Source: a virus (Duplodnaviria; Caudoviricetes). Taken from it: a stretch of 64,000 nt of DNA. Positions 26,482 through 54,704 of this stretch are shown piece by piece. The position numbers and the translations under genes are program-made. The stretch spans positions 30,944 to 94,943 of the IMG/VR virus record IMGVR_UViG_2519899680_000008; one strand, 5' to 3'. Numbering within the stretch: the first letter of the stretch is position 1; each line of letters starts with the position of its first letter. The notes below the pieces were generated by a model that saw only the letters and a list, made by a program, of their open reading frames with translations, did not search any database and had not been told where the DNA came from.

Positions 26482-27276
26482 TTATTTCAGCAATTTGTCA
26501 ATCAGCTTTTCCCTTACTACCCCGTAAGCCTCATGCGGGTCAAACGTGATATCCGGACGCAGGAGCAGCTGGGAATCCGAAAGGAAATCCGGGTCCTGCA
26601 TCTTTTCCTCCATGTTGAGGATGAACTGCTTATGGGTAGGAGGTTGCTGCACCACGAACCCGATGTAACGTTTGTAGCAACGAATGACATCATCCGTATT
26701 CACCCCCGTTTTTGTCAGAGCCAGGTACAGGTCGAGAAGGTCACGACCTTTCTTTCGCTGGTACAATGCCCGCAGTTTCGTACCGAGCAGTTCGGCAAGA
26801 TTGTAGGTGGTGATTTCACACGAGCCGGAAAACCACTGGTTTTCCAACGAAAACGGCATTTTGACAAATCCCATCTCGGTAAAGTGTTCAAAACAGTTGA
26901 TTTCAATCTTCAAACGCAGTTGTATCGGAGGAGTTCCTTCAGATTGGATACGGCAAAGCATCGTGTTGTTGTAACGTTTCTGTTTCGTCACCCTGTCCGG
27001 AATGAAATCCAGTACTTTACCAAGACGGAACATGATAGGCTTGATGGGACCTGCCGTAATCTGCACGAGGTCAATGTCCTCGCTGTATCTGACCTGCGGA
27101 AGCATGTGTAGCTTATGAAGGGCTGTTCCTCCCCGGAAAGCCAGTTGGGATGCAAGAAAATCGTCTCCGAAAATGGAGACCAGGGCACGGGATATTATCA
27201 GGTCCTGCTCAATGTATGACACATCAGTCCATGGGGCGTGTTCACGCCATTGTTGTATTGCGGATTTTACTACCAT
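26482..27276 (-). CDS. abiEii: AbiEii-family nucleotidyltransferase toxin (type IV TA)
   Basis: 'IEQDLII', 'AFRGGTALHK', 'RYSEDIDL', 'KLRALYQRKKGRDLLDL'. Confidence 0.92.
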   Translation of the reverse strand: MVVKSAIQQWREHAPWTDVSYIEQDLIISRALVSIFGDDFLASQLAFRGGTALHKLHMLPQVRYSEDIDLVQITAGPIKPIMFRLGKVLDFIPDRVTKQKRYNNTMLCRIQSEGTPPIQLRLKIEINCFEHFTEMGFVKMPFSLENQWFSGSCEITTYNLAELLGTKLRALYQRKKGRDLLDLYLALTKTGVNTDDVIRCYKRYIGFVVQQPPTHKQFILNMEEKMQDPDFLSDSQLLLRPDITFDPHEAYGVVREKLIDKLLK

Positions 27277-28076
27277 AATTCGTCCGGTTCAATGTCTTGG
27301 TTTATTATAAGTTTCCATTTTGAATTCTTCCTTGCCCCGTCTTGAGGGCGGTCTGTTGACAAGGGGCGGTATTTCAGGTTTTTGTAATATGGTTCCAGCA
27401 TCATGCTGATTTCATCGGCGGCAGACTGTTCTCCCAGTACGTTTTCCAATATGTAACCCAACCGTTGAAGTGTGGAAAAGGTGGTAATATCTGTAAGTTC
27501 TTTCCCGGATTTCATAAAATCAGTGTTCTCAACCAGTTCGGCGATTACAGTCGCCGCGGCGGAAAGACCTCCGACCTGTTGGCTGTATTGCACAAGATCA
27601 ACGGCAGTAAGTTCCGGACAAGAATACAGAAGCGTACCCGTATCAGTGTGGGTCTGGAGCAATAGGTTTTGAGGGATTTCTTTCCGGTAGCTCCAGAACA
27701 GATGCCTGTTGCTGTTTTTTGAAACAGGAATTCTTGGCAGAACTGTGGTGACTGAAAGCCTTTGCGGGCGCTGGTGCGCCGCTCCGTTGAGTACGCCGGC
27801 ACTCAGAAGGCTGATGTAATAGGGTCTGCCCAAATGTGTCATCAGCTGGTCTACATAATTATACGGAGGGACGATACCCCTGTCCCTGAACTGAATGGAT
27901 ACCGTTGTATAAAATCCCTTGTGTACAGCCTGGATACGCTTCTGCTTGCCTAACCGGTACAGTTCATTAGACACTACCTGTGCGGATAGTGCAGGCAGGG
28001 CTTTCCTGATATCATTGTATGAGAATGTCGGAAAACCTGTCATCTCTCGTTTGTCAATCCAATCTGATATGGTCAT
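27270..28076 (-). CDS. abiEi: AbiEi-family antitoxin (type IV TA)
   Basis: 'YYISLLSAGVLNGAAHQRPQ', 'PELTAVDL', 'LQRLGYILE'; overlaps toxin; TATATTTG -7 box at 28095-28102 places start at 28076. Confidence 0.9.
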   Translation of the reverse strand: MTISDWIDKREMTGFPTFSYNDIRKALPALSAQVVSNELYRLGKQKRIQAVHKGFYTTVSIQFRDRGIVPPYNYVDQLMTHLGRPYYISLLSAGVLNGAAHQRPQRLSVTTVLPRIPVSKNSNRHLFWSYRKEIPQNLLLQTHTDTGTLLYSCPELTAVDLVQYSQQVGGLSAAATVIAELVENTDFMKSGKELTDITTFSTLQRLGYILENVLGEQSAADEISMMLEPYYKNLKYRPLSTDRPQDGARKNSKWKLIINQDIEPDELW

Positions 28077-28143
28077 TTCTCGGATATTTTGTTGCAAATA
28101 TAATCTTTTTTTTATTATGTCGATTATATTTTGTCCGAGGATA

Positions 28144-28935: not shown

Positions 28936-29569
28936 TTTTTTCGTTCCTCTCTGTTACCCATGGTGTTTCAATATTGCATATACGGGGATAACAATTGGCA
29001 AATATACAATTTATTCGGCACAGTCCGAGGCGGAAATCCGATAAAAACCCCCGCTTTGATATAAAAAGACAAAAACTGAACAAATAAGTCGTTTCCCGCG
29101 GGAATACCCTTGCCCTGTATATTCCTCGCGGGTTACGGAAGTCCTTGTACCGGCAATCATATCTCTCCGCTCGCCCATATATATTATTGCCATGCAATGT
29201 ATTGCAAAGGTAACGTGTGCCGATGCTCCTTCGTGCAGGGACAGAATATGCAAGTATATTTTTCATGCAAAACATCTGCCATGTACAACCCTGTTTTTAC
29301 AAGGGCCTCCGGAAAGCCTTCTTCCCTGTATATACCGGGAGAATGTAAGCGTATCTTTTCATGGAACTGTCATACCGTAACGGCGCGGGTGAAACGACGA
29401 CCGGTCTCCTGAACTTCAAGAGCTGGACCCGTCCCTTTCATGTATATTTCACGGCATCCGCTTACAATCCGTAACCTAACCGGCATTTTCGCCGGTTTTC
29501 AAAAACCGGACTTGGGAAAAATGCCCGGGGAGAGATACCGAATCCGCACCTGGACAGATACCCTCCCCA

Positions 29570-29960
29570 ATCTTTTTATTTTTATTACTATATTGATATT
29601 CAATAATTTAATAGGTTTACTTTTGTATAAAGTAAGCCTAAAACGGTTTTTTCTCTCTTTGTTACTTACAATTTGAAAGCAAATAAATTATTTCCTTTGT
29701 TTTCACATGTTTTGTATTTAACTATATTGTTTATAATCAATCGTTTATGTGTAAAAATCCCTTCCTTACACATTTGAAATCGGGTATTTTTCGATTTTTG
29801 CAAAGAAAAAATTTTTTCATGTTTTTATAAATAGTTGATATTCAATTATTTATAACTGTTTCTCGCGCATGTGCGTTCCATGTTTGGGAAAAGTGAATTT
29901 TTAAGGCAGTCTAAAATTTTTTTTTGCAAAAAGTTTTGGAAATTGGAAAAACGGTTTTAT
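29570..29960. promoter_or_regulatory. AT-rich divergent control region with repeated TTGATATTCAAT-like boxes
   Basis: Boxes at 29593-29604, 29835-29846 and variant TTTATAATCAAT at 29730-29741; gene orientation switches here. Confidence 0.45.
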
Positions 29961-29964
29961 CATA

Positions 29965-30680
29965 GTCATGTACTCGAAAGCCAAAACAAACGGCAAACAA
30001 GTACGGAAAAAACGAATAAAAAAAACAATAACTAAAAAACAGATTTAAGAAACAGACAAACCAGTCCGCCGAGAGCGAGAAACAAAAAGCCTTTTTTGTG
30101 GGAAACCTATTTTTGAGGCTTGGAAAATCAAAAATTGCCTGTTCGCTTTGGAGCGATTAAATAGGGTGTTAAATAACCACACCGAGCAGGACTACAAACC
30201 AATGTAGCAAGTTGGAACGGTCTAAAAACGTGTTTTTAGTCCGCATACGCAAAGCACGCTAAATTTTGGGAGTGCGAGAGTCGTATGGAAAAAGGACGTG
30301 TAAAAATAATGCCATAATTGCGCCCATGTGCGCTCGGAATAAAATGCACGATAGCGGTAAAAACTATCCGCATAGAGGACGCTGGTAAATGTATATGCCA
30401 ATGCTATACCCAATACCCAGCTCGGTGGTAACACCTAAATGCCTCACCTTACAGTTAGCTGCCGGATCGGAAAAGATCCGGGACGTGCCAGAGAAGCGTC
30501 TTGCCGAAATTGGAGTAAAGCAGCGCAGTGCCACGACACGAATGTTGCGTGAGTAAGCAAATACACGATATGCCGAAAGTGCGCTCATTTGGATAGCTCT
30601 GCTATGGGGTACGTTTAAGTAAGGTGCGACAAAGTTACGAAAAATTTTGCCGTGCAGGGTGAAATGCACGGCAATTTTTT
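29965..30680 (+). ncRNA. Candidate large structured non-coding RNA
   Basis: No credible ORF; many helices including 30087-92/30116-21, 30138-45/30183-90, 30244-49/30282-87, 30462-68/30475-81, long-range 30445-52/30619-26, 30647-56/30665-74. Confidence 0.55.
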
Positions 30681-30753
30681 GGGCACTGCTGAAAAAACGG
30701 TTTCAGCCGTTCCGCCTTTGGCTGAACGTGGGGTTCGAGTCCCCGAGTGCCCG
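30681..30753 (+). tRNA. tRNA-like cloverleaf (non-canonical, TTT at anticodon position)
   Basis: Acceptor GGGCACT/AGTGCCC, T arm TGGGG-TTCGAGT-CCCCG, 73 nt; atypical D arm, C33, no CCA. Confidence 0.5.
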
Positions 30754-30795
30754 CAATGCGTGATTTTGCGCAGAGTTTCTAAAATTTATATCATT

Positions 30796-31389
30796 ATGGC
30801 AACATCTAAATTGAACAAGGAACAGTATGCAAACCTCTCTTCGTTTGCTGGTATCATGTTGGTTTACAACTCGACAAACCGCGACGGTGAAACGGTGCAG
30901 ACTGCCCAACACTTTTTCGGCAAGGACTTCGAGCCTGCCGACAAAACGGACGACGAAATCTTCCGTGTGGTGAAAAACATGGTCGCAACGATGTGGCATA
31001 CCATTGCAGAGGAAAAGAAACTGCGGCAAGATGCCGACGGTATCCGCTCGAAATTCCGTGCCACCACTCCGGCAGAAATCATCATCTGCGACAAGAACCG
31101 TAACCGCATCAAGCACTACGACCTGACGGACAGCGTGTGGGCACGTATCGGACTTGTGCCGACCAAAGTGGATCTCGAGAAGTCAAACCGGGACTTTGCC
31201 AAGACTATCCATGCGGCGGCAAAGGCTATCCGTAACGCCATGAATTTTGCCCCGAACCTCTCCAGCCTTGAAAAAGCCGGAAAAGCTGACAAGAAAAACG
31301 GCGGCAAAGGAACAAAAAATGCAGAAGATGCGGCAACCGCGACCGCTGAAACGATAACCGCAACCGAAACGGAAAAAGAAGCCGCATAA
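30796..31389 (+). CDS. Hypothetical protein (first gene of accessory arm)
   Basis: MATSKLNKEQY..., Lys/Ala/Thr-rich tail, followed by terminator. Confidence 0.75.
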   Translation: MATSKLNKEQYANLSSFAGIMLVYNSTNRDGETVQTAQHFFGKDFEPADKTDDEIFRVVKNMVATMWHTIAEEKKLRQDADGIRSKFRATTPAEIIICDKNRNRIKHYDLTDSVWARIGLVPTKVDLEKSNRDFAKTIHAAAKAIRNAMNFAPNLSSLEKAGKADKKNGGKGTKNAEDAATATAETITATETEKEAA

Positions 31390-34500: not shown

Positions 34501-35598
34501 ATGGAAACAACATTATTGACAAAGGAAAATGCCCATCGTGTGACCATGGTGCGGCGTGTGGATGCCCCGGAAAGCGAACCGGTAGCGTTTCTTTTCAGGG
34601 GAAAGAGACACGGGTATTGCAGCTATTCCCATCTTGTAGGGAACCCGGGCAGGGAAGAAATCCTCGCCCCGGCGAACTTCAAGGACTGGGAAGTTGTGGA
34701 AGTGGCACACCCGGGCTACCTGGAAGAATATTTCAAGCAGGCGTGCAGCTCCTACAACCTCACCTCTTTCTCACCCGACGAGCGGGGTGAGTCAGACATT
34801 GCTTCGCACGAAAAGGAACTGCACGAGGATTTGCAGTCGATGCCCGAGCAGCAGCGGGAACGTTACATGGAAAACTACAAACGCTATTTCTCTGCCATGA
34901 TCGCCACCAACAGCCGTTGTGCCAGCGCGATGATTACGGGGCCTGCACGCTTCAACACGGGCCGCAACGAAAAGGCCTGCAACAGCCACGCCAAGAGCGT
35001 CACGGCGTTCCGGGAATGGCGCGAACGTGCACTCGAAGCGATTCGCAAGGCTACCGAAGCGGCCAAGCCCGGGGAGCAGTGTCTTGAGGAGGAGTGGCAG
35101 AAGGTCAAAGCCCTTATCGACGATGCCGCCTCGACCATTCACGGTATCGATACGGGTACAGAACGAGGCTATAGCCGGGCTCTCTTCGTCAGTAACCTCG
35201 CCGGGCGACTCTCCACCTATGTCAATCATGGCAATGTGGAAATCATCGACCGCGCCATCGCTCATCTGCGAGAGTGGAACGCCAAGGTCAAGAAACCTAT
35301 CGTCACGGCACGCCATTCGATCTTCAAGTATCCCGAACTCGTCCGTAAGGTACGGGAAAAGCAGCAGGAACAGGCAAGCCGTGAAAATCGTGAGATCCCG
35401 TTCGATGGCGGCAAGGTGGTCTATAACTTCGAGGAAGACCGCCTGCAAATCCTCTTCGACAAAATACCCGATGCCGATACACGCACGACCCTGAAACGTA
35501 ACGCCTTCAAGTGGTCGCCGCGCAACCAGGCATGGCAGCGCCAGCTCACCCGCAATGCCGAATATGCTGCCGGCCAGGTGTTGAAGATAACCATTTAA
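34501..35598 (+). CDS. Conserved mobile-element protein (DUF3560/polyvalent-protein-like C-terminus)
   Basis: 'SAMITGPARFN' and 'DRLQILFDKIPD...LKRNAFKWSPRNQAWQRQLT'. Confidence 0.65.
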   Translation: METTLLTKENAHRVTMVRRVDAPESEPVAFLFRGKRHGYCSYSHLVGNPGREEILAPANFKDWEVVEVAHPGYLEEYFKQACSSYNLTSFSPDERGESDIASHEKELHEDLQSMPEQQRERYMENYKRYFSAMIATNSRCASAMITGPARFNTGRNEKACNSHAKSVTAFREWRERALEAIRKATEAAKPGEQCLEEEWQKVKALIDDAASTIHGIDTGTERGYSRALFVSNLAGRLSTYVNHGNVEIIDRAIAHLREWNAKVKKPIVTARHSIFKYPELVRKVREKQQEQASRENREIPFDGGKVVYNFEEDRLQILFDKIPDADTRTTLKRNAFKWSPRNQAWQRQLTRNAEYAAGQVLKITI

Positions 35599-38962: not shown

Positions 38963-39080
38963 GACAGGGAAATGATACGATTAACAGAATAGAATATGGA
39001 CTTTGCTGAATGCTTACAAAGTTATAACCTTCAACGCTTTGAACGGCATTGTCAGGAAAAACAATAAAAACAGACGAACC

Positions 39081-40340
39081 ATGTCAGACAAGATATTACA
39101 GATGTTCTTCGACATAGACCGGTGGTCGAAAGCGATTGAAAAAGGTGTTCTGAAAGACATCCGTAAAGACCAGCTAATCCGGCTGACCGACGAACGTACG
39201 CGCCTCGCCATGGCCGAAGCCATGATGCAAGGCAAGTACGAAATCTCACCGCCCCATACGGCGCGGATACCCAAAGAGGGCGGGGAGTTCCGCACGGTGT
39301 ATGTAAACGAACCGATGGATCGTGTGGTGCTGGGCATCGCCAACGACCTCCTGTTCGACCTGATGCCCGAGATGCTCCATACCTCTTGCAAGTCTTACCA
39401 GAAGGGTATCGGGTGTGGCAGGGTCGTTGCCGAGGTCAGCCGCAGGATGGCGGATGCCGAGAGCGACGGCTGTCCCGGGTGGAAAGCCGACCTGAGCAAG
39501 TATTTCGACAGCGTCCCGCTGTGTTACATCGACGGGGCATTCGACAAGGTAGAGGCGAAACACGGGCATTCCGTGCTCATCGATGTCCTACGGAAATACT
39601 ACCACAACGACCTCTATTTTGATGAAGACAACATCCTTCAACGCAAATTCCAGTCATTGAAACAAGGGTGTGCCGTGGCCAGCTGGCTGGCAAACGTGCT
39701 GCTCCACGACCTTGACGGAGAACTCTCCCGAATGGACGGTTACTATGTCCGCTACTCGGATGACATGCTCTTTATCGGCAAGGACCACGAAAAGGCGATG
39801 GACGTGCTTCAAAAGCGGCTGGAAGAGAAAACCATGAAGCTCAACCCGAAGAAGGTGGAATACCTGACGGCTGACCGATGGTTCAAGTTCCTCGGGTTCA
39901 GTATAAAGGGCAGCATGGTCTCGCTCTCCCCGTCCCGTATCAAGACCTTCCAGAGAGAAATCGAACGGAGAACGATCCGCCGTCGGGATACGACACCGGC
40001 CAAAGCCGTGAATGCCGTGAACCGCTACCTCTACAAGGGCGAGTTCAGCTGGGCAGCTCAGGTATTGCCGGTGTGCAACGTGCGAAGGGACATCGACGAG
40101 TTGAACAAATTCGTGATGGACTGTCTCAGGGCCGTGAAGACCGGCAAGTGCAAGGTCGGCGGTCTGGGATATGTCCGTGATTACCCCATCGGCTGTATCG
40201 CCCGGGGACGGGGGCGTAATGTCACGGCCAACCGTGCCAAAGCCGGCGGTGACATCGCCGGTTACCTCACGCTGGGCTGCATGCAGAACGCCTTGCAAAC
40301 GAGCCGGGCCGTGTACAACACGCTGGTGGCTTCACTGTAA
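39081..40340 (+). CDS. Reverse transcriptase (stand-alone, group II-like fold, ~419 aa)
   Basis: RT motifs: GEFRTVYVNEPMDRVV, WKADLSKYFDSV, LKQGCAVASWLAN, YVRYSDD, KLNPKK, FKFLGF; no endonuclease domain. Confidence 0.95.
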   Translation: MSDKILQMFFDIDRWSKAIEKGVLKDIRKDQLIRLTDERTRLAMAEAMMQGKYEISPPHTARIPKEGGEFRTVYVNEPMDRVVLGIANDLLFDLMPEMLHTSCKSYQKGIGCGRVVAEVSRRMADAESDGCPGWKADLSKYFDSVPLCYIDGAFDKVEAKHGHSVLIDVLRKYYHNDLYFDEDNILQRKFQSLKQGCAVASWLANVLLHDLDGELSRMDGYYVRYSDDMLFIGKDHEKAMDVLQKRLEEKTMKLNPKKVEYLTADRWFKFLGFSIKGSMVSLSPSRIKTFQREIERRTIRRRDTTPAKAVNAVNRYLYKGEFSWAAQVLPVCNVRRDIDELNKFVMDCLRAVKTGKCKVGGLGYVRDYPIGCIARGRGRNVTANRAKAGGDIAGYLTLGCMQNALQTSRAVYNTLVASL

Positions 40341-51707: not shown

Positions 51708-54704
51708 ATGTACCAGATTCATCCACTGAAAATATCGCAATCCGTCAGGCAAGCGGTTAACGAGAAAATTCTGGCGGCCATTGATTCCGGTTCGTCCGAG
51801 TTTACAGCCGAAACCGTGTATAATTCCTACACCGGGCACGGCGGACTTCACACGTTGAAACAAGGGGATTTCGCTTCCTATTCCGAGTATGCCGAAGCCA
51901 AGCGGGAACAGGAAATGGGCCAGTTCTTCACGCCGCACGAGATTTGCCGGACGATGGTCGATGCCGCTTGCCCGCAATCCACGGACATGATTCTGGATAT
52001 GTGCTGCGGTATGGGAAACTTTTTCAATTTCTTGCCTAACCCGTATAACGCCTACGGTTTCGACATAGACCCTGACGCGGTCAAAGTCGCCAGATTCCTC
52101 TATCCGAACGCGCACATCAATGTCGCGGACATCCGTACCTGTGAAATGGAGGAACGTTTCGACATCCTGATCGGTAACCCGCCATTCAACCTCGATTTCG
52201 ACGGCACCCCTTCACAATTCCACTACTGCAACAAAGCTTACTGGATGCTGAACCCCGCCGGTCTGCTGTTGATGATCGTTCCCGCCACGTTCCTGAAAGA
52301 CGAATTCTGGGACAAAACGAGAATCAACGCCATAAACCGGGATTTCTCCTTCATCGGGCAGACAAAACTCCCGTCCGATGCCTTCAAGCGGGTGGGTGTG
52401 GCGAAGTTCGACACCAAAATCATGGCATTTTTGCGGGCATCCAAACACATCGAGATGCAACCTTACCGTGCAGAGGAGTTCTGCACGATGGAGCAACTGG
52501 GAGAGCGGATCGCGAAAGGCAGAGGCATCCGGGAAGAGATTAAACTGCTGTTACATCAGGAAATCTCGGAAGAAACGATGGCGGAAAACCGCGAGTTCGA
52601 GTACCGGCTGAAAAAATACCTGTACGAAATCAAGACCCACAAGGCACTCCAAAAACATTACGACAAGTCCGTTGCACTGGTCTCCAGGTTCCGCAACCAG
52701 CGTCCGCCTGAAAACTGCACGGTGGAAGAGTACAAAGCGTGGGAACGCCGGAAACTGACCTACAAAAAAGTACTGGGCGTCCTGCGGCGCCACATCCGCG
52801 ACCAAAACATTATTCCCCGTAAAGAAGTGGCATTGGTAAAGACTTCGTACGGCTTCAAACTGAAAGGATACGCCCCGCACTTGCTGGACAGAGTGGGACA
52901 CACCTACTCGTCCCTGAACGACATCCTCATCGGAGAGAAACCGCTCCCGGCACTCCCGGAAATGACCCCGCGCCAGAAGGAACAATACGCAATGGCAGAA
53001 CGCTTCATCGCCAAGAAACGCAGGGCTTACGAACTCCAGTCGGTAAAATTCACCGCTATGCAGCGGGATACCGCGCTGGACGAGCGGATCGCTTCCCTGA
53101 GCTTCCTGAACAAGGACATGCAGACATGCCAATTCACCGCGCTGCAACAACACGACATGGGACTGGTCTTTCAAAAACGCTACGCGCTTCTCAACTGGCA
53201 GCAAGGCTCCGGTAAAACCGCCGTAGCATACCACTACGCCAAGTTTCGTGATACGCGGACAAAAAACACCGTGGTTTTGGCACCGTCCATCGCCATACAC
53301 ATGACATGGGAACCCTTCCTGCAACGCCACGGCGAACCGTTCGTTACCGTCAGCCGCCCCGAACATCTGAAAGCTGTCGGGGCCGGCATGTTCGTGCTGG
53401 TGTCGTTGACGATGCTGGGTGATTTGAAGGCGGCCCTCAAAACATTCATGAAGCGTCGCTCCAACAAAATATGCCTGATATTCGACGAGTCGGACGAAAT
53501 AACCAACCCTTACGCCCTGCGGACCCGTCTGACAATGGAACTGTTCCGCAGGGCCGAATTCAAGCTGCTGGCCACCGGCACGACAACGCGCAACTCGATC
53601 GTGGAGCTCTACTCGCAGTTTGAATTGATGTACAACAACTCCGTAAACATGATTTGTTACGCCTCACGGGTGTACTTCGAGGACAAGGAGCGGAACATTT
53701 CGGAGAAATACAACGAGCATTGTCTCCGTCCGTTCCCCGCACGTGGCGGTGCAAGGCTGTTCCGTGCCAGCTTCTGCCCGGGCAAGGCTACCGTATTCGG
53801 GGTGGAGAAACACAACCAGGACATATACAACCAGACCCACCTTTCCGAACTCATCGACAAAACCATCATTACACGGAAATTCAAGGAGTTCGCCGGAGAT
53901 AAATACGAAATCATCAACTACACCGTAACCCCCGGAGAGGGTGAACGGGCGGTATATCGTACCATCATGGAGAGATTCCATGAAATCCTGCATCTTTATT
54001 TCAGCCCGATGACGGACAAGAGAAAAGAATCCCATCTCAAAATCGCACGCCAGATACAGCTCCTTATCAAAGCCTGTTCGGTTCCGCACAAGATGAGCGG
54101 TTACCATGGCGACCCCTATCCGGAAAAGGCCAAGCTGATCGGACGCAAGTTGCGCTATGAACTGCGCGGCAAGGTCGCCATCGGCTGTACCTCGCTCGAT
54201 GCGGTGGCCATGTACCAGGAATTTCTCAAGGAGCATTTCCCGCAAAGACCACTGTTCGTCATACGTGGAAACGTGGGCTTCAAGACGCGACAGCGCCTGC
54301 TCGACAGGTTCGAGAAGACGATGGACGGTATTCTGGTCTGCACGCAGCAGAGCCTGAGAAGCTCGGTCAATGTTCCCGGTTGCGAGGACATCATTATCGA
54401 ATCCCTGCTCTGGAACATCCCGCGCATGGAGCAATTCTACTTCCGCTTCATCCGTCTGGACTCGGAAGGTATGCGCCATGTCCATTACATTACCTACGGG
54501 GATTCCATCGAACAGAACCTGATGGCACTGGTGCTCGCCAAGGAACGGTTGAACGAGTTCGTCAAAAACGGGAAGGTAACGGAGGAATCGGACATCTTCG
54601 AGGAGTTCGACATCTCTCCCGACATCATAGAAACCCTCTTCAGACGCGAGAAAGACGAGAAAGGTAATTTCCACATCTGCTGGGGCGCACAAAAAGTAAG
54701 TTAA
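51708..54704 (+). CDS. N6-adenine methyltransferase fused to SF2 (SNF2-like) helicase, DarB-like
   Basis: GQFFTP, ILDMCCGMG, IGNPPF; helicase NWQQGSGKT, IFDESD, ATGT, C-terminal QFYFRFIR. Confidence 0.85.
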   Translation: MYQIHPLKISQSVRQAVNEKILAAIDSGSSEFTAETVYNSYTGHGGLHTLKQGDFASYSEYAEAKREQEMGQFFTPHEICRTMVDAACPQSTDMILDMCCGMGNFFNFLPNPYNAYGFDIDPDAVKVARFLYPNAHINVADIRTCEMEERFDILIGNPPFNLDFDGTPSQFHYCNKAYWMLNPAGLLLMIVPATFLKDEFWDKTRINAINRDFSFIGQTKLPSDAFKRVGVAKFDTKIMAFLRASKHIEMQPYRAEEFCTMEQLGERIAKGRGIREEIKLLLHQEISEETMAENREFEYRLKKYLYEIKTHKALQKHYDKSVALVSRFRNQRPPENCTVEEYKAWERRKLTYKKVLGVLRRHIRDQNIIPRKEVALVKTSYGFKLKGYAPHLLDRVGHTYSSLNDILIGEKPLPALPEMTPRQKEQYAMAERFIAKKRRAYELQSVKFTAMQRDTALDERIASLSFLNKDMQTCQFTALQQHDMGLVFQKRYALLNWQQGSGKTAVAYHYAKFRDTRTKNTVVLAPSIAIHMTWEPFLQRHGEPFVTVSRPEHLKAVGAGMFVLVSLTMLGDLKAALKTFMKRRSNKICLIFDESDEITNPYALRTRLTMELFRRAEFKLLATGTTTRNSIVELYSQFELMYNNSVNMICYASRVYFEDKERNISEKYNEHCLRPFPARGGARLFRASFCPGKATVFGVEKHNQDIYNQTHLSELIDKTIITRKFKEFAGDKYEIINYTVTPGEGERAVYRTIMERFHEILHLYFSPMTDKRKESHLKIARQIQLLIKACSVPHKMSGYHGDPYPEKAKLIGRKLRYELRGKVAIGCTSLDAVAMYQEFLKEHFPQRPLFVIRGNVGFKTRQRLLDRFEKTMDGILVCTQQSLRSSVNVPGCEDIIIESLLWNIPRMEQFYFRFIRLDSEGMRHVHYITYGDSIEQNLMALVLAKERLNEFVKNGKVTEESDIFEEFDISPDIIETLFRREKDEKGNFHICWGAQKVS

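Follow-up and report, generated by a model that had tools for sequence, protein, structure and literature searches.

Large RNAs with many helices are rare in bacteria and phages, the two phage classes studied being GOLLD and ROOL. Both are located near tRNAs; they are approximately 580-800 nucleotides long and more, have many helices, are sometimes covalently linked to a tRNA, and build assemblies through A-minor interactions and kissing loops (PMC5737381; bioRxiv 10.1101/2024.12.08.627333), forming RNA-only nanocages of unknown purpose (bioRxiv 10.1101/2024.12.08.627333). We analyzed a 64,000-nucleotide stretch (the window) of IMG/VR record IMGVR_UViG_2519899680_000008, in which an initial annotation made from sequence alone had proposed a large structured RNA at positions 29965-30680, beside a tRNA-like element. 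The core of this RNA belongs to the Rfam family Bacteroidales-2 (RF02943), an unstudied family similar in size to GOLLD and ROOL, whose carriers are apparently phages of a main group of human gut bacteria.

The locus shares its helices with the Bacteroidales-2 model and matches it over its full length. It differs from the model in the size of the unit (approximately 735 versus 392 nucleotides), in a constant link to a tRNA-like element, in its residence in phages of approximately 100 kb, and in bearing hallmarks of the opposite strand. Because of the longer unit, the tRNA mimic and the doubtful strand, probing only the 392 nucleotides in Rfam, on the Rfam strand, may mean studying the wrong molecule. 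Bacteroidales-2 was reportedly first described by Weinberg et al. (2017, NAR 45:10811; PMC5737381), in the supplement. The main text of PMC5737381 does not mention the Bacteroidales-2 motif, and our literature searches found no paper discussing it. How far the unit extends, its constant tRNA-mimic partner, the group of phages carrying it and the uncertainty over its strand appear to be new, although some of these points may already be in the supplement of the discovery paper.

Two other kinds of system resemble parts of the locus. In the vertebrate RNAs MALAT1 and MEN-beta, RNase P cleavage at a tRNA-like element (mascRNA, RF01684) makes the 3' end of the long RNA. Here, too, a long structured RNA is followed by a cloverleaf with good acceptor and T arms and an arm that is not an anticodon arm. 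The two are unrelated, however: the best Rfam match of the tRNA-like element, mascRNA-menRNA, scores 20.3 bits, below the cut-off of 42.5, and the likeness is one of possible working, not of membership. Among phages, coliphage 186 has a face-to-face promoter switch (pR/pL), and P4 CI and P1/P7 c4 are immunity RNAs processed by RNase P. The present locus likewise has facing promoter boxes between divergent arms, with a tRNA-like candidate RNase P substrate nearby. The known cases involve RNAs of under 100 nucleotides or a short promoter overlap, whereas approximately 690 bp of structured sequence lies between the boxes here. These facing boxes, together with the divergence of the core between co-resident prophages, suggest a link to phage immunity.

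A full-length match to Bacteroidales-2

In an Infernal scan of the whole window against Rfam, the minus strand of 30080-30488 matched RF02943 with a score of 427.8 bits (E = 2.7e-124). The alignment covers positions 1-392 of the 392-position model, with no non-canonical pairs flagged. Given a full-length match at twice the gathering score (204.3 bits), the core belongs to this catalogued family and does not represent a new class. Rfam types the family as 'sRNA' and assigns it no function. Twelve divergent homologues all score between 266 and 435 bits against the model, and a second Bacteroidales-2 copy in the same genome scores 346.2 bits. The initial annotation had named GOLLD, ROOL and Bacteroidales motifs as the Rfam families to check. 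Only the last of these was found: neither GOLLD (RF01998) nor ROOL (RF03087) matched at its gathering score anywhere in the window, where no family besides RF02943 was above threshold, and within 29300-31000 neither they nor any other family matched at E values up to 1 with permissive filters.

The proposal of a large structured phage RNA beside a tRNA-like element is therefore borne out by the family match, and also by covariation among homologues. Compensatory changes are present in alignments of 23-54 homologues, and the RF02943 helices keep their pairing with double changes across 14-23 lineages. Over the core helices of 23 lineages, 1259 of 1304 pair cells are Watson-Crick and the others wobble (27 and 18), with many double changes; 58 helix instances were set aside as misaligned before this count. 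The 716 nucleotides first annotated fold with z-scores of -2.98 (plus strand) and -2.79 (minus strand), and none of 20 shuffles folds as well. Long stop-free frames do occur on the A-poor minus strand, but they shift in frame and place between lineages, so we rejected a protein-coding reading; the region is free of conserved open reading frames, as had been annotated.

Seven of the ten helices originally listed coincide with covarying ones: AAGCCT/AGGCTT (30088-93 / 30116-21), CCTG/CAGG (30138-41 / 30187-90), CTACA/TGTAG, CTAAAAA/TTTTTAG, CATACG/CGTATG and CCGGAT/ATCCGG, all Watson-Crick with compensatory changes, and the terminal 10-bp hairpin (30647-30674), whose pairing is likewise kept by compensation. 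The remaining three fared worse. GATAG/CTATC is unsupported, the covarying helix at that place being GCGG/CCGC (30354-57 / 30368-71). The GGTG-GTAA-CACC hairpin lies within an insertion found in some lineages only, one of which does compensate, to GGCG/CGCC. The long-range CACCTTAC/GTAAGGTG helix is present but limited to some lineages, only 4-5 of its pairs remaining elsewhere.

The conserved unit extends beyond the Rfam model

Conservation among homologues is 0.74-0.94 over approximately 29920-30530 and resumes at 30640-30680. The conserved, covarying unit spans approximately 29945-30680, or some 735 nucleotides as against 392 in the Rfam model, and extends beyond the model on both sides; the 29965-30680 interval of the initial annotation fits this block better than the model does. 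The unit and the elements that follow it are:

29945-30079, no strand assigned: left A-rich domain, comprising hairpin X1, an A-rich linker and hairpin X2; outside the Rfam model
30080-30488, minus strand (that of the Rfam model): core, full-length RF02943 match
30496-30526, no strand assigned: hairpin H_A, a covarying stem with a one-sided bulge; outside the Rfam model
30647-30680, plus strand: terminal hairpin of 10 bp (30647-74) with invariant loop GGGTGAAA, and a T run
30681-30753, plus strand: tRNA-like cloverleaf with a 7-bp acceptor, a canonical T arm GGGGTTCGAGTCCCC and no encoded CCA
30757-30772, plus strand: small covarying hairpin directly after the tRNA-like element, 24 nucleotides before the start codon at 30796
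30796-31389, plus strand: first gene of the rightward arm, 197 amino acids, hypothetical; the conserved right-hand neighbor

The left domain is 0.74-0.85 identical to its homologues. X1 pairs GTACT (29970-74) with AGTAC (30000-04) and, further in, GCC (29980-82) with GGC (29992-94), with compensatory forms GCC/GGC, GGC/GCC, GGG/CCC and GGGG/CCCC. X2 pairs CGC (30067-69) with GCG (30075-77) and occurs as CGC/GCG, CCC/GGG and CTC/GAG. As MAFFT aligns this domain poorly, the compensation in X1 and X2 was counted by eye. To the right of the core, H_A carries an invariant 12-nucleotide loop, GAAAT(T/G)GGAGTA (30506-30517). In H_A and P1 taken together, pairing holds in 88.8% of cells. The covariation score of 0.495 (100 loci, collapsing to 37 distinct rows) compares with 0.205 in shuffles, none of 500 reaching it, and with at most 0.104 in slid controls. 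All ten pairs of the terminal hairpin show double changes, each in 4-13 of 23 sequences; a terminator scan detects the 30647-30680 hairpin on both strands, making it terminator-like either way. Folded together, the terminal hairpin, the tRNA-like element and the small hairpin have a consensus energy of -48.4 kcal/mol, with double changes at 22 of 34 pairs among the 23 lineages.

Between H_A and the terminal hairpin lies a variable middle (30531-30640), which has two unrelated versions among the homologues. Some lineages carry additional hairpins of the kind typical, as expansion segments, of large structured RNAs: a stem-loop of approximately 45 nucleotides in the A-rich linker (near 30030; L010, L018, L035, L291, L304 and L324), and CCTAC-GAAA-GTAGG after P7 (near 30212; L002, L117 and L312). 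A predicted long-range interaction of TGCCAGAGA (30486-94) with both the U run and GGGCA was rejected: double changes are absent from it, and the acceptor stem competes with it.

A tRNA-like element directly after the RNA

The tRNA-like neighbor of the initial annotation is real, though ARAGORN calls no tRNA there, nor anywhere else in the window. A 7-bp hairpin replaces its D arm and a long hairpin its anticodon arm. It is not a tRNA in the usual sense of a cloverleaf with a 7-nucleotide anticodon loop and a GG-bearing D loop that a tRNA finder recognizes. In approximately 100 related phage contigs, a plus-strand cloverleaf directly follows the block. In the 23 lineages, the acceptor, anticodon-like and T stems persist and covary, and the anticodon-like loop has 5-11 nucleotides in most lineages. 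At the same place in 56 relatives, ARAGORN called tRNA-Cys(GCA) in 12, another or an abnormal tRNA in 17, and none in 27. The D and anticodon arms are variable and, as far as their sequences tell, mostly non-decoding, and decoding by any of these elements appears doubtful. The element is best read as a tRNA mimic that would keep the parts recognized by RNase P and RNase Z. Even in the versions called as tRNA-Cys(GCA), such as those of L008, L012 and L028, the anticodon is apparently preceded by C where U is universal (loop UCGCAGC, by eye).

We also considered whether the element could be the attachment-site remnant of a host tRNA-Cys. It is unrelated in sequence to the only tRNA-Cys of the host and lies deep inside the prophage, and we therefore rejected this origin; its 5' half, moreover, keeps its pairing by compensation. 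In the small hairpin that follows, 9 of the 23 sequences have double changes at pair 131/144 and 11 at pair 132/143, and on the plus strand there are 17 U.G or G.U pairs versus 2 A.C. The gene at 30796 was detected by tblastn in 81 of 87 RNA-bearing loci, with the order of RNA, tRNA-like element and gene kept. Its product has no Pfam or PHROG family and its look-alikes in the Atlas are hypothetical phage proteins; the neighboring proteins gave no lead on function.

Which strand is transcribed

A covariance model matches the strand of its seed, so the minus-strand Rfam match is not proof of the transcribed strand. Promoters in Bacteroides have the -7 consensus TAnnTTTG (PMC7366714), and two candidate boxes flank the unit:

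29931-29938, plus strand: candidate promoter box AAGTTTTG, near-consensus (AAnnTTTG), left of the conserved block
30630-30637, minus strand: candidate promoter box TAACTTTG, perfect TAnnTTTG, facing the core

Of the 23 lineages, 18 have an AAnnTTTG box at the corresponding place, 7-10 nucleotides before the conserved block. Of the other five, L047 and L324 have ATnnTTTG, L018 and L304 are cut by the extraction, and the first base of the box in L005 falls outside the segment. No other perfect -7 box is conserved on either strand of 29480-29960, and between the core and the terminal hairpin no perfect plus-strand box recurs in the 23 lineages.

On the plus strand, the terminal hairpin shows 15 G.U or U.G pairs, with a conserved internal U.G among them, and lacks A.C; judged by this pattern it is, beyond doubt, a plus-strand RNA element. 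For the rest of the unit, the apical loops point the same way. The loop at the apex of P11, UUUC in the Rfam consensus, reads GAAA on the plus strand and is kept while its closing stem covaries (GG/CC, TG/CA, CAC/GTG and GC/GC). GAAA also caps X1a and the hairpins inserted in particular lineages when these are read on the plus strand, and GGGTGAAA may be read as a GUGA tetraloop, of the GNRA type, closed by tandem G.A pairs. In total, we counted 19 GNRA tetraloops on the plus strand versus 3 on the minus. Unpaired core bases on the plus strand are 40% A, 26% U, 19% G and 14% C; an A-heavy unpaired composition is usual for structured RNAs. Internal wobbles in well-aligned core helices amount to six cells at three pairs on the plus strand and none on the minus, and the top pair of P1 is U.G on the plus strand in 36 of 37 distinct sequences.

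Several observations weigh against a plus-strand RNA. The perfect minus-strand box is present upstream of the core in all 23 lineages, either at 30630-37 (10 lineages) or aligned to 30571-30578 (13 lineages, TATATTTG), as a relocated promoter would be, whereas the plus-strand candidate is mismatched at its first position. The curators of Rfam list the family on the minus strand, on which 17 of 23 lineages retain the G.U at the base of P7 (30208/30191) and a U run follows P11. The plus-strand GNRA count is inflated by A-richness. Wobbles at helix ends in the core are mixed, those of H_A are neutral in a model-based alignment (G.U versus A.C, 15 to 16), and folding corrected for composition shows no strand preference.

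Taken together, this evidence suggests that the folded, functional RNA probably lies on the plus strand, opposite to its listing in Rfam, with appreciable room for doubt. The leftward promoter at 30630-37 is quite probably real as well, which makes antisense transcription across the RNA gene likely. Each version of the variable middle places the perfect minus-strand box differently (30637 or 30578), like a swapped promoter module.

Other candidate indicators of strand were tried and set aside. An impression by eye that H_A marks the plus strand was undone by the 15-to-16 count. Thermodynamic tests were indecisive: raw energies favor the plus strand for 30489-30690 and the minus strand for 29950-30080, composition-corrected z-scores erase the effect, and unconstrained folds of single hairpins are mixed. 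As possible promoters, the plus-strand TACTTTTG at 29618-25 is not conserved and lies within a conserved inverted repeat, and TATTTTTG at 30108-15 occurs in 9 of 23 lineages only, inside the covarying helix P11.

Explanations for the locus

We consider the best explanation of the locus as a whole to be a Bacteroidales-2 RNA that forms a longer unit, is transcribed from the plus strand and is linked to a tRNA mimic, a reading with about an even chance of being right. A rightward transcript would start at approximately 29946 from the near-consensus box at 29931-38 and end at the hairpin and U run of 30647-80. Its 3' end could arise by termination, or by an RNase P cut at 30680/30681, as for MALAT1/mascRNA. 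The leftward promoter at 30630-37 would probably send antisense transcripts across this RNA.

The orientation given in Rfam instead implies a stand-alone minus-strand RNA of approximately 480-545 nucleotides, running from the perfect -7 box (30630-37 or 30571-78) through H_A and the core to P11 and the U run near 30080, with the terminal hairpin, the tRNA-like element and the small hairpin on a separate rightward transcript. The strand of the RF02943 match agrees with this arrangement, as do the conserved G.U at the base of P7, UUUUUGUUU after P11, and the minus box itself, which is perfect in 23 of 23 lineages; the 1.5-kb intergenic region contains no second perfect box that is conserved. We nevertheless regard it as rather unlikely: the covarying hairpins X1 and X2 would lie beyond the supposed 3' end, several conserved apical loops would be UUUC and not GAAA, with unpaired bases 40% U, and the internal wobbles favor the plus strand. 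P11 would also be a weak terminator (five plus two pairs, with two 8-nucleotide internal loops), and a separate promoter, of which there is no visible sign, would be required for the plus-strand terminal hairpin. If both strands matter, the weaker rightward promoter (29931-38) and the strong leftward one (30630-37), facing each other across approximately 690 bp, could make the region between the leftward arm and the rightward (replication) arm a switch based on antisense or convergent transcription, or else an immunity determinant; the helices would then be kept Watson-Crick because both transcripts must fold. Both boxes are conserved, the element lies between divergent arms, the core wobbles are nearly strand-neutral (27 and 18 cells versus 1259 Watson-Crick), and corrected folding is equal on the two strands. 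The co-resident prophages are alike in the flanks and divergent in the core and the arms of the mimic, as expected of heteroimmune phages; mosaic, modular recombination explains this pattern of identity equally well, however. Given also that a switch leaves approximately 13 conserved helices unexplained, and that the known phage antisense and immunity RNAs (P4 CI, P1 c4 and P22 sar) are small, this explanation is unlikely.

A cis-acting role is more improbable still. The RNA would be a giant plus-strand 5' leader of the rightward early operon and 30647-80 a regulated terminator, with read-through into the tRNA-like element and the genes. The hairpin and U run do resemble an intrinsic terminator, no conserved promoter is visible between this hairpin and the gene at 30796, and the order of RNA, tRNA-like element and gene is the same in 81 of 87 loci; but we know of no riboswitch or attenuator leader of 735 nucleotides, the invariance of the hairpin loop points to a structural role, and no alternative anti-terminator pairing was found, that of the U run with AGAGA (30491-96) being without double changes. 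That the hairpins act as DNA, for instance in a replication origin or packaging site, we hold to be extremely improbable. The lack of strand bias in the core wobbles would fit, as would the proximity of replication genes. Against a DNA element stand the absence of iterons and tandem repeats, the approximately 16 separate hairpins with conserved apical loops of RNA type, the clear RNA-strand bias of the terminal hairpin and the tRNA-like element, and the match to a curated RNA family.

If the plus-strand reading is right, analogy with GOLLD and ROOL tentatively suggests that the RNA acts in trans as an 'ornate' phage RNA of their kind, possibly in higher-order assemblies, while being unrelated to both. 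The RNAs are alike in their large size, many helices and location in phages or prophages beside a tRNA or tRNA-like element, and the plus strand here offers A-rich loops and GNRA tetraloops. They differ in that the GOLLD and ROOL models do not match, the secondary structure is unrelated and the putative host belongs to another phylum; the neighbor here is apparently a non-decoding tRNA mimic and not a tRNA island. The most comprehensive proposal is that Bacteroidales-2 is an ornate plus-strand RNA of approximately 735 nucleotides in abundant 100-kb phages of gut Bacteroidales, of which Rfam holds the middle half on the wrong strand; that it is made as a single precursor with a non-decoding tRNA mimic, at which RNase P defines its 3' end; that it is a third, unrelated member of the GOLLD/ROOL class, possibly self-assembling; and that a strong antisense promoter ties its expression to the lysis-lysogeny decision. 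This combination is unlikely to hold in every part.

Prophage setting and distribution

A 1.5-kb gap without a conserved reading frame, in which Bacteroides-type TAnnTTTG boxes occur, separates the last leftward gene (end at 29275) from the first rightward gene (start at 30796). The genome (4.9 Mb, 47.7% G+C) contains two syntenic elements, 70-90% identical, at C12:18226-113367 (54% G+C) and C1:160880-262385, each with one Bacteroidales-2 copy. Since the C1 element occupies the middle of a 404-kb contig, both are integrated prophages of approximately 95-100 kb, and the RNA sits in the divergent control region of such a prophage. Between the two prophages, identity is 93-96% in P1 and H_A, around the terminal hairpin, and in the T arm with the 3' acceptor strand, but falls to 55% in the core (with 67 gap columns) and to 49% in the mimic's variable arms. 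The carrier is a phage of approximately 95-100 kb with, putatively, a gut Bacteroidales host.

Pattern scans found the element in approximately 100 IMG/VR viral loci, on contigs of approximately 11-177 kb, and phage MT835494.1, from human feces, carries it with 91.5% identity. A search of 100 related genomes with strict filters did not find it. Scans of viral and genome sets with the 15-mer AATTATGGCATTATT were too unspecific, returning almost only chance matches, from which an nhmmer screen kept one new locus, L117.

Phage genes in the window encode a tape-measure protein, a Mu-type portal, a Clp-type protease, a KilA-N/ANT protein, a primase, a reverse transcriptase and a methylase-helicase fusion:

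34501-35598: primase, among the adjacent replication genes
39003-40340, rightward arm: reverse transcriptase (RVT_1)
51708-54704: 998-amino-acid fusion of an N6-adenine methylase and a helicase C-terminal domain
27270-28097, minus strand: AbiEi antitoxin
26482-27276, minus strand: AbiEii nucleotidyltransferase toxin

The AbiEi/AbiEii genes lie two genes to the left of the RNA. Neither was detected by tblastn in 87 related RNA-bearing loci, and the pair is therefore cargo specific to this prophage. Some toxins of the AbiEii family (MenT) modify tRNA 3' ends; a link of the toxin to the tRNA mimic would be pure speculation.

Three kinds of conserved site toward the left of the intergenic region are candidate operators of a phage switch. 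The box TTGATATTCAAT, a TTGA-N3-TCAA palindrome, occurs twice (29593-29604 and 29835-29846); a 10-bp inverted repeat, GGTTTACTTT/AAAGTAAGCC, lies at 29614-29638, its halves changing together between phages; and a conserved G+C-rich block, CTCGCGCATGTGCGTTCC, lies at 29862-29880.

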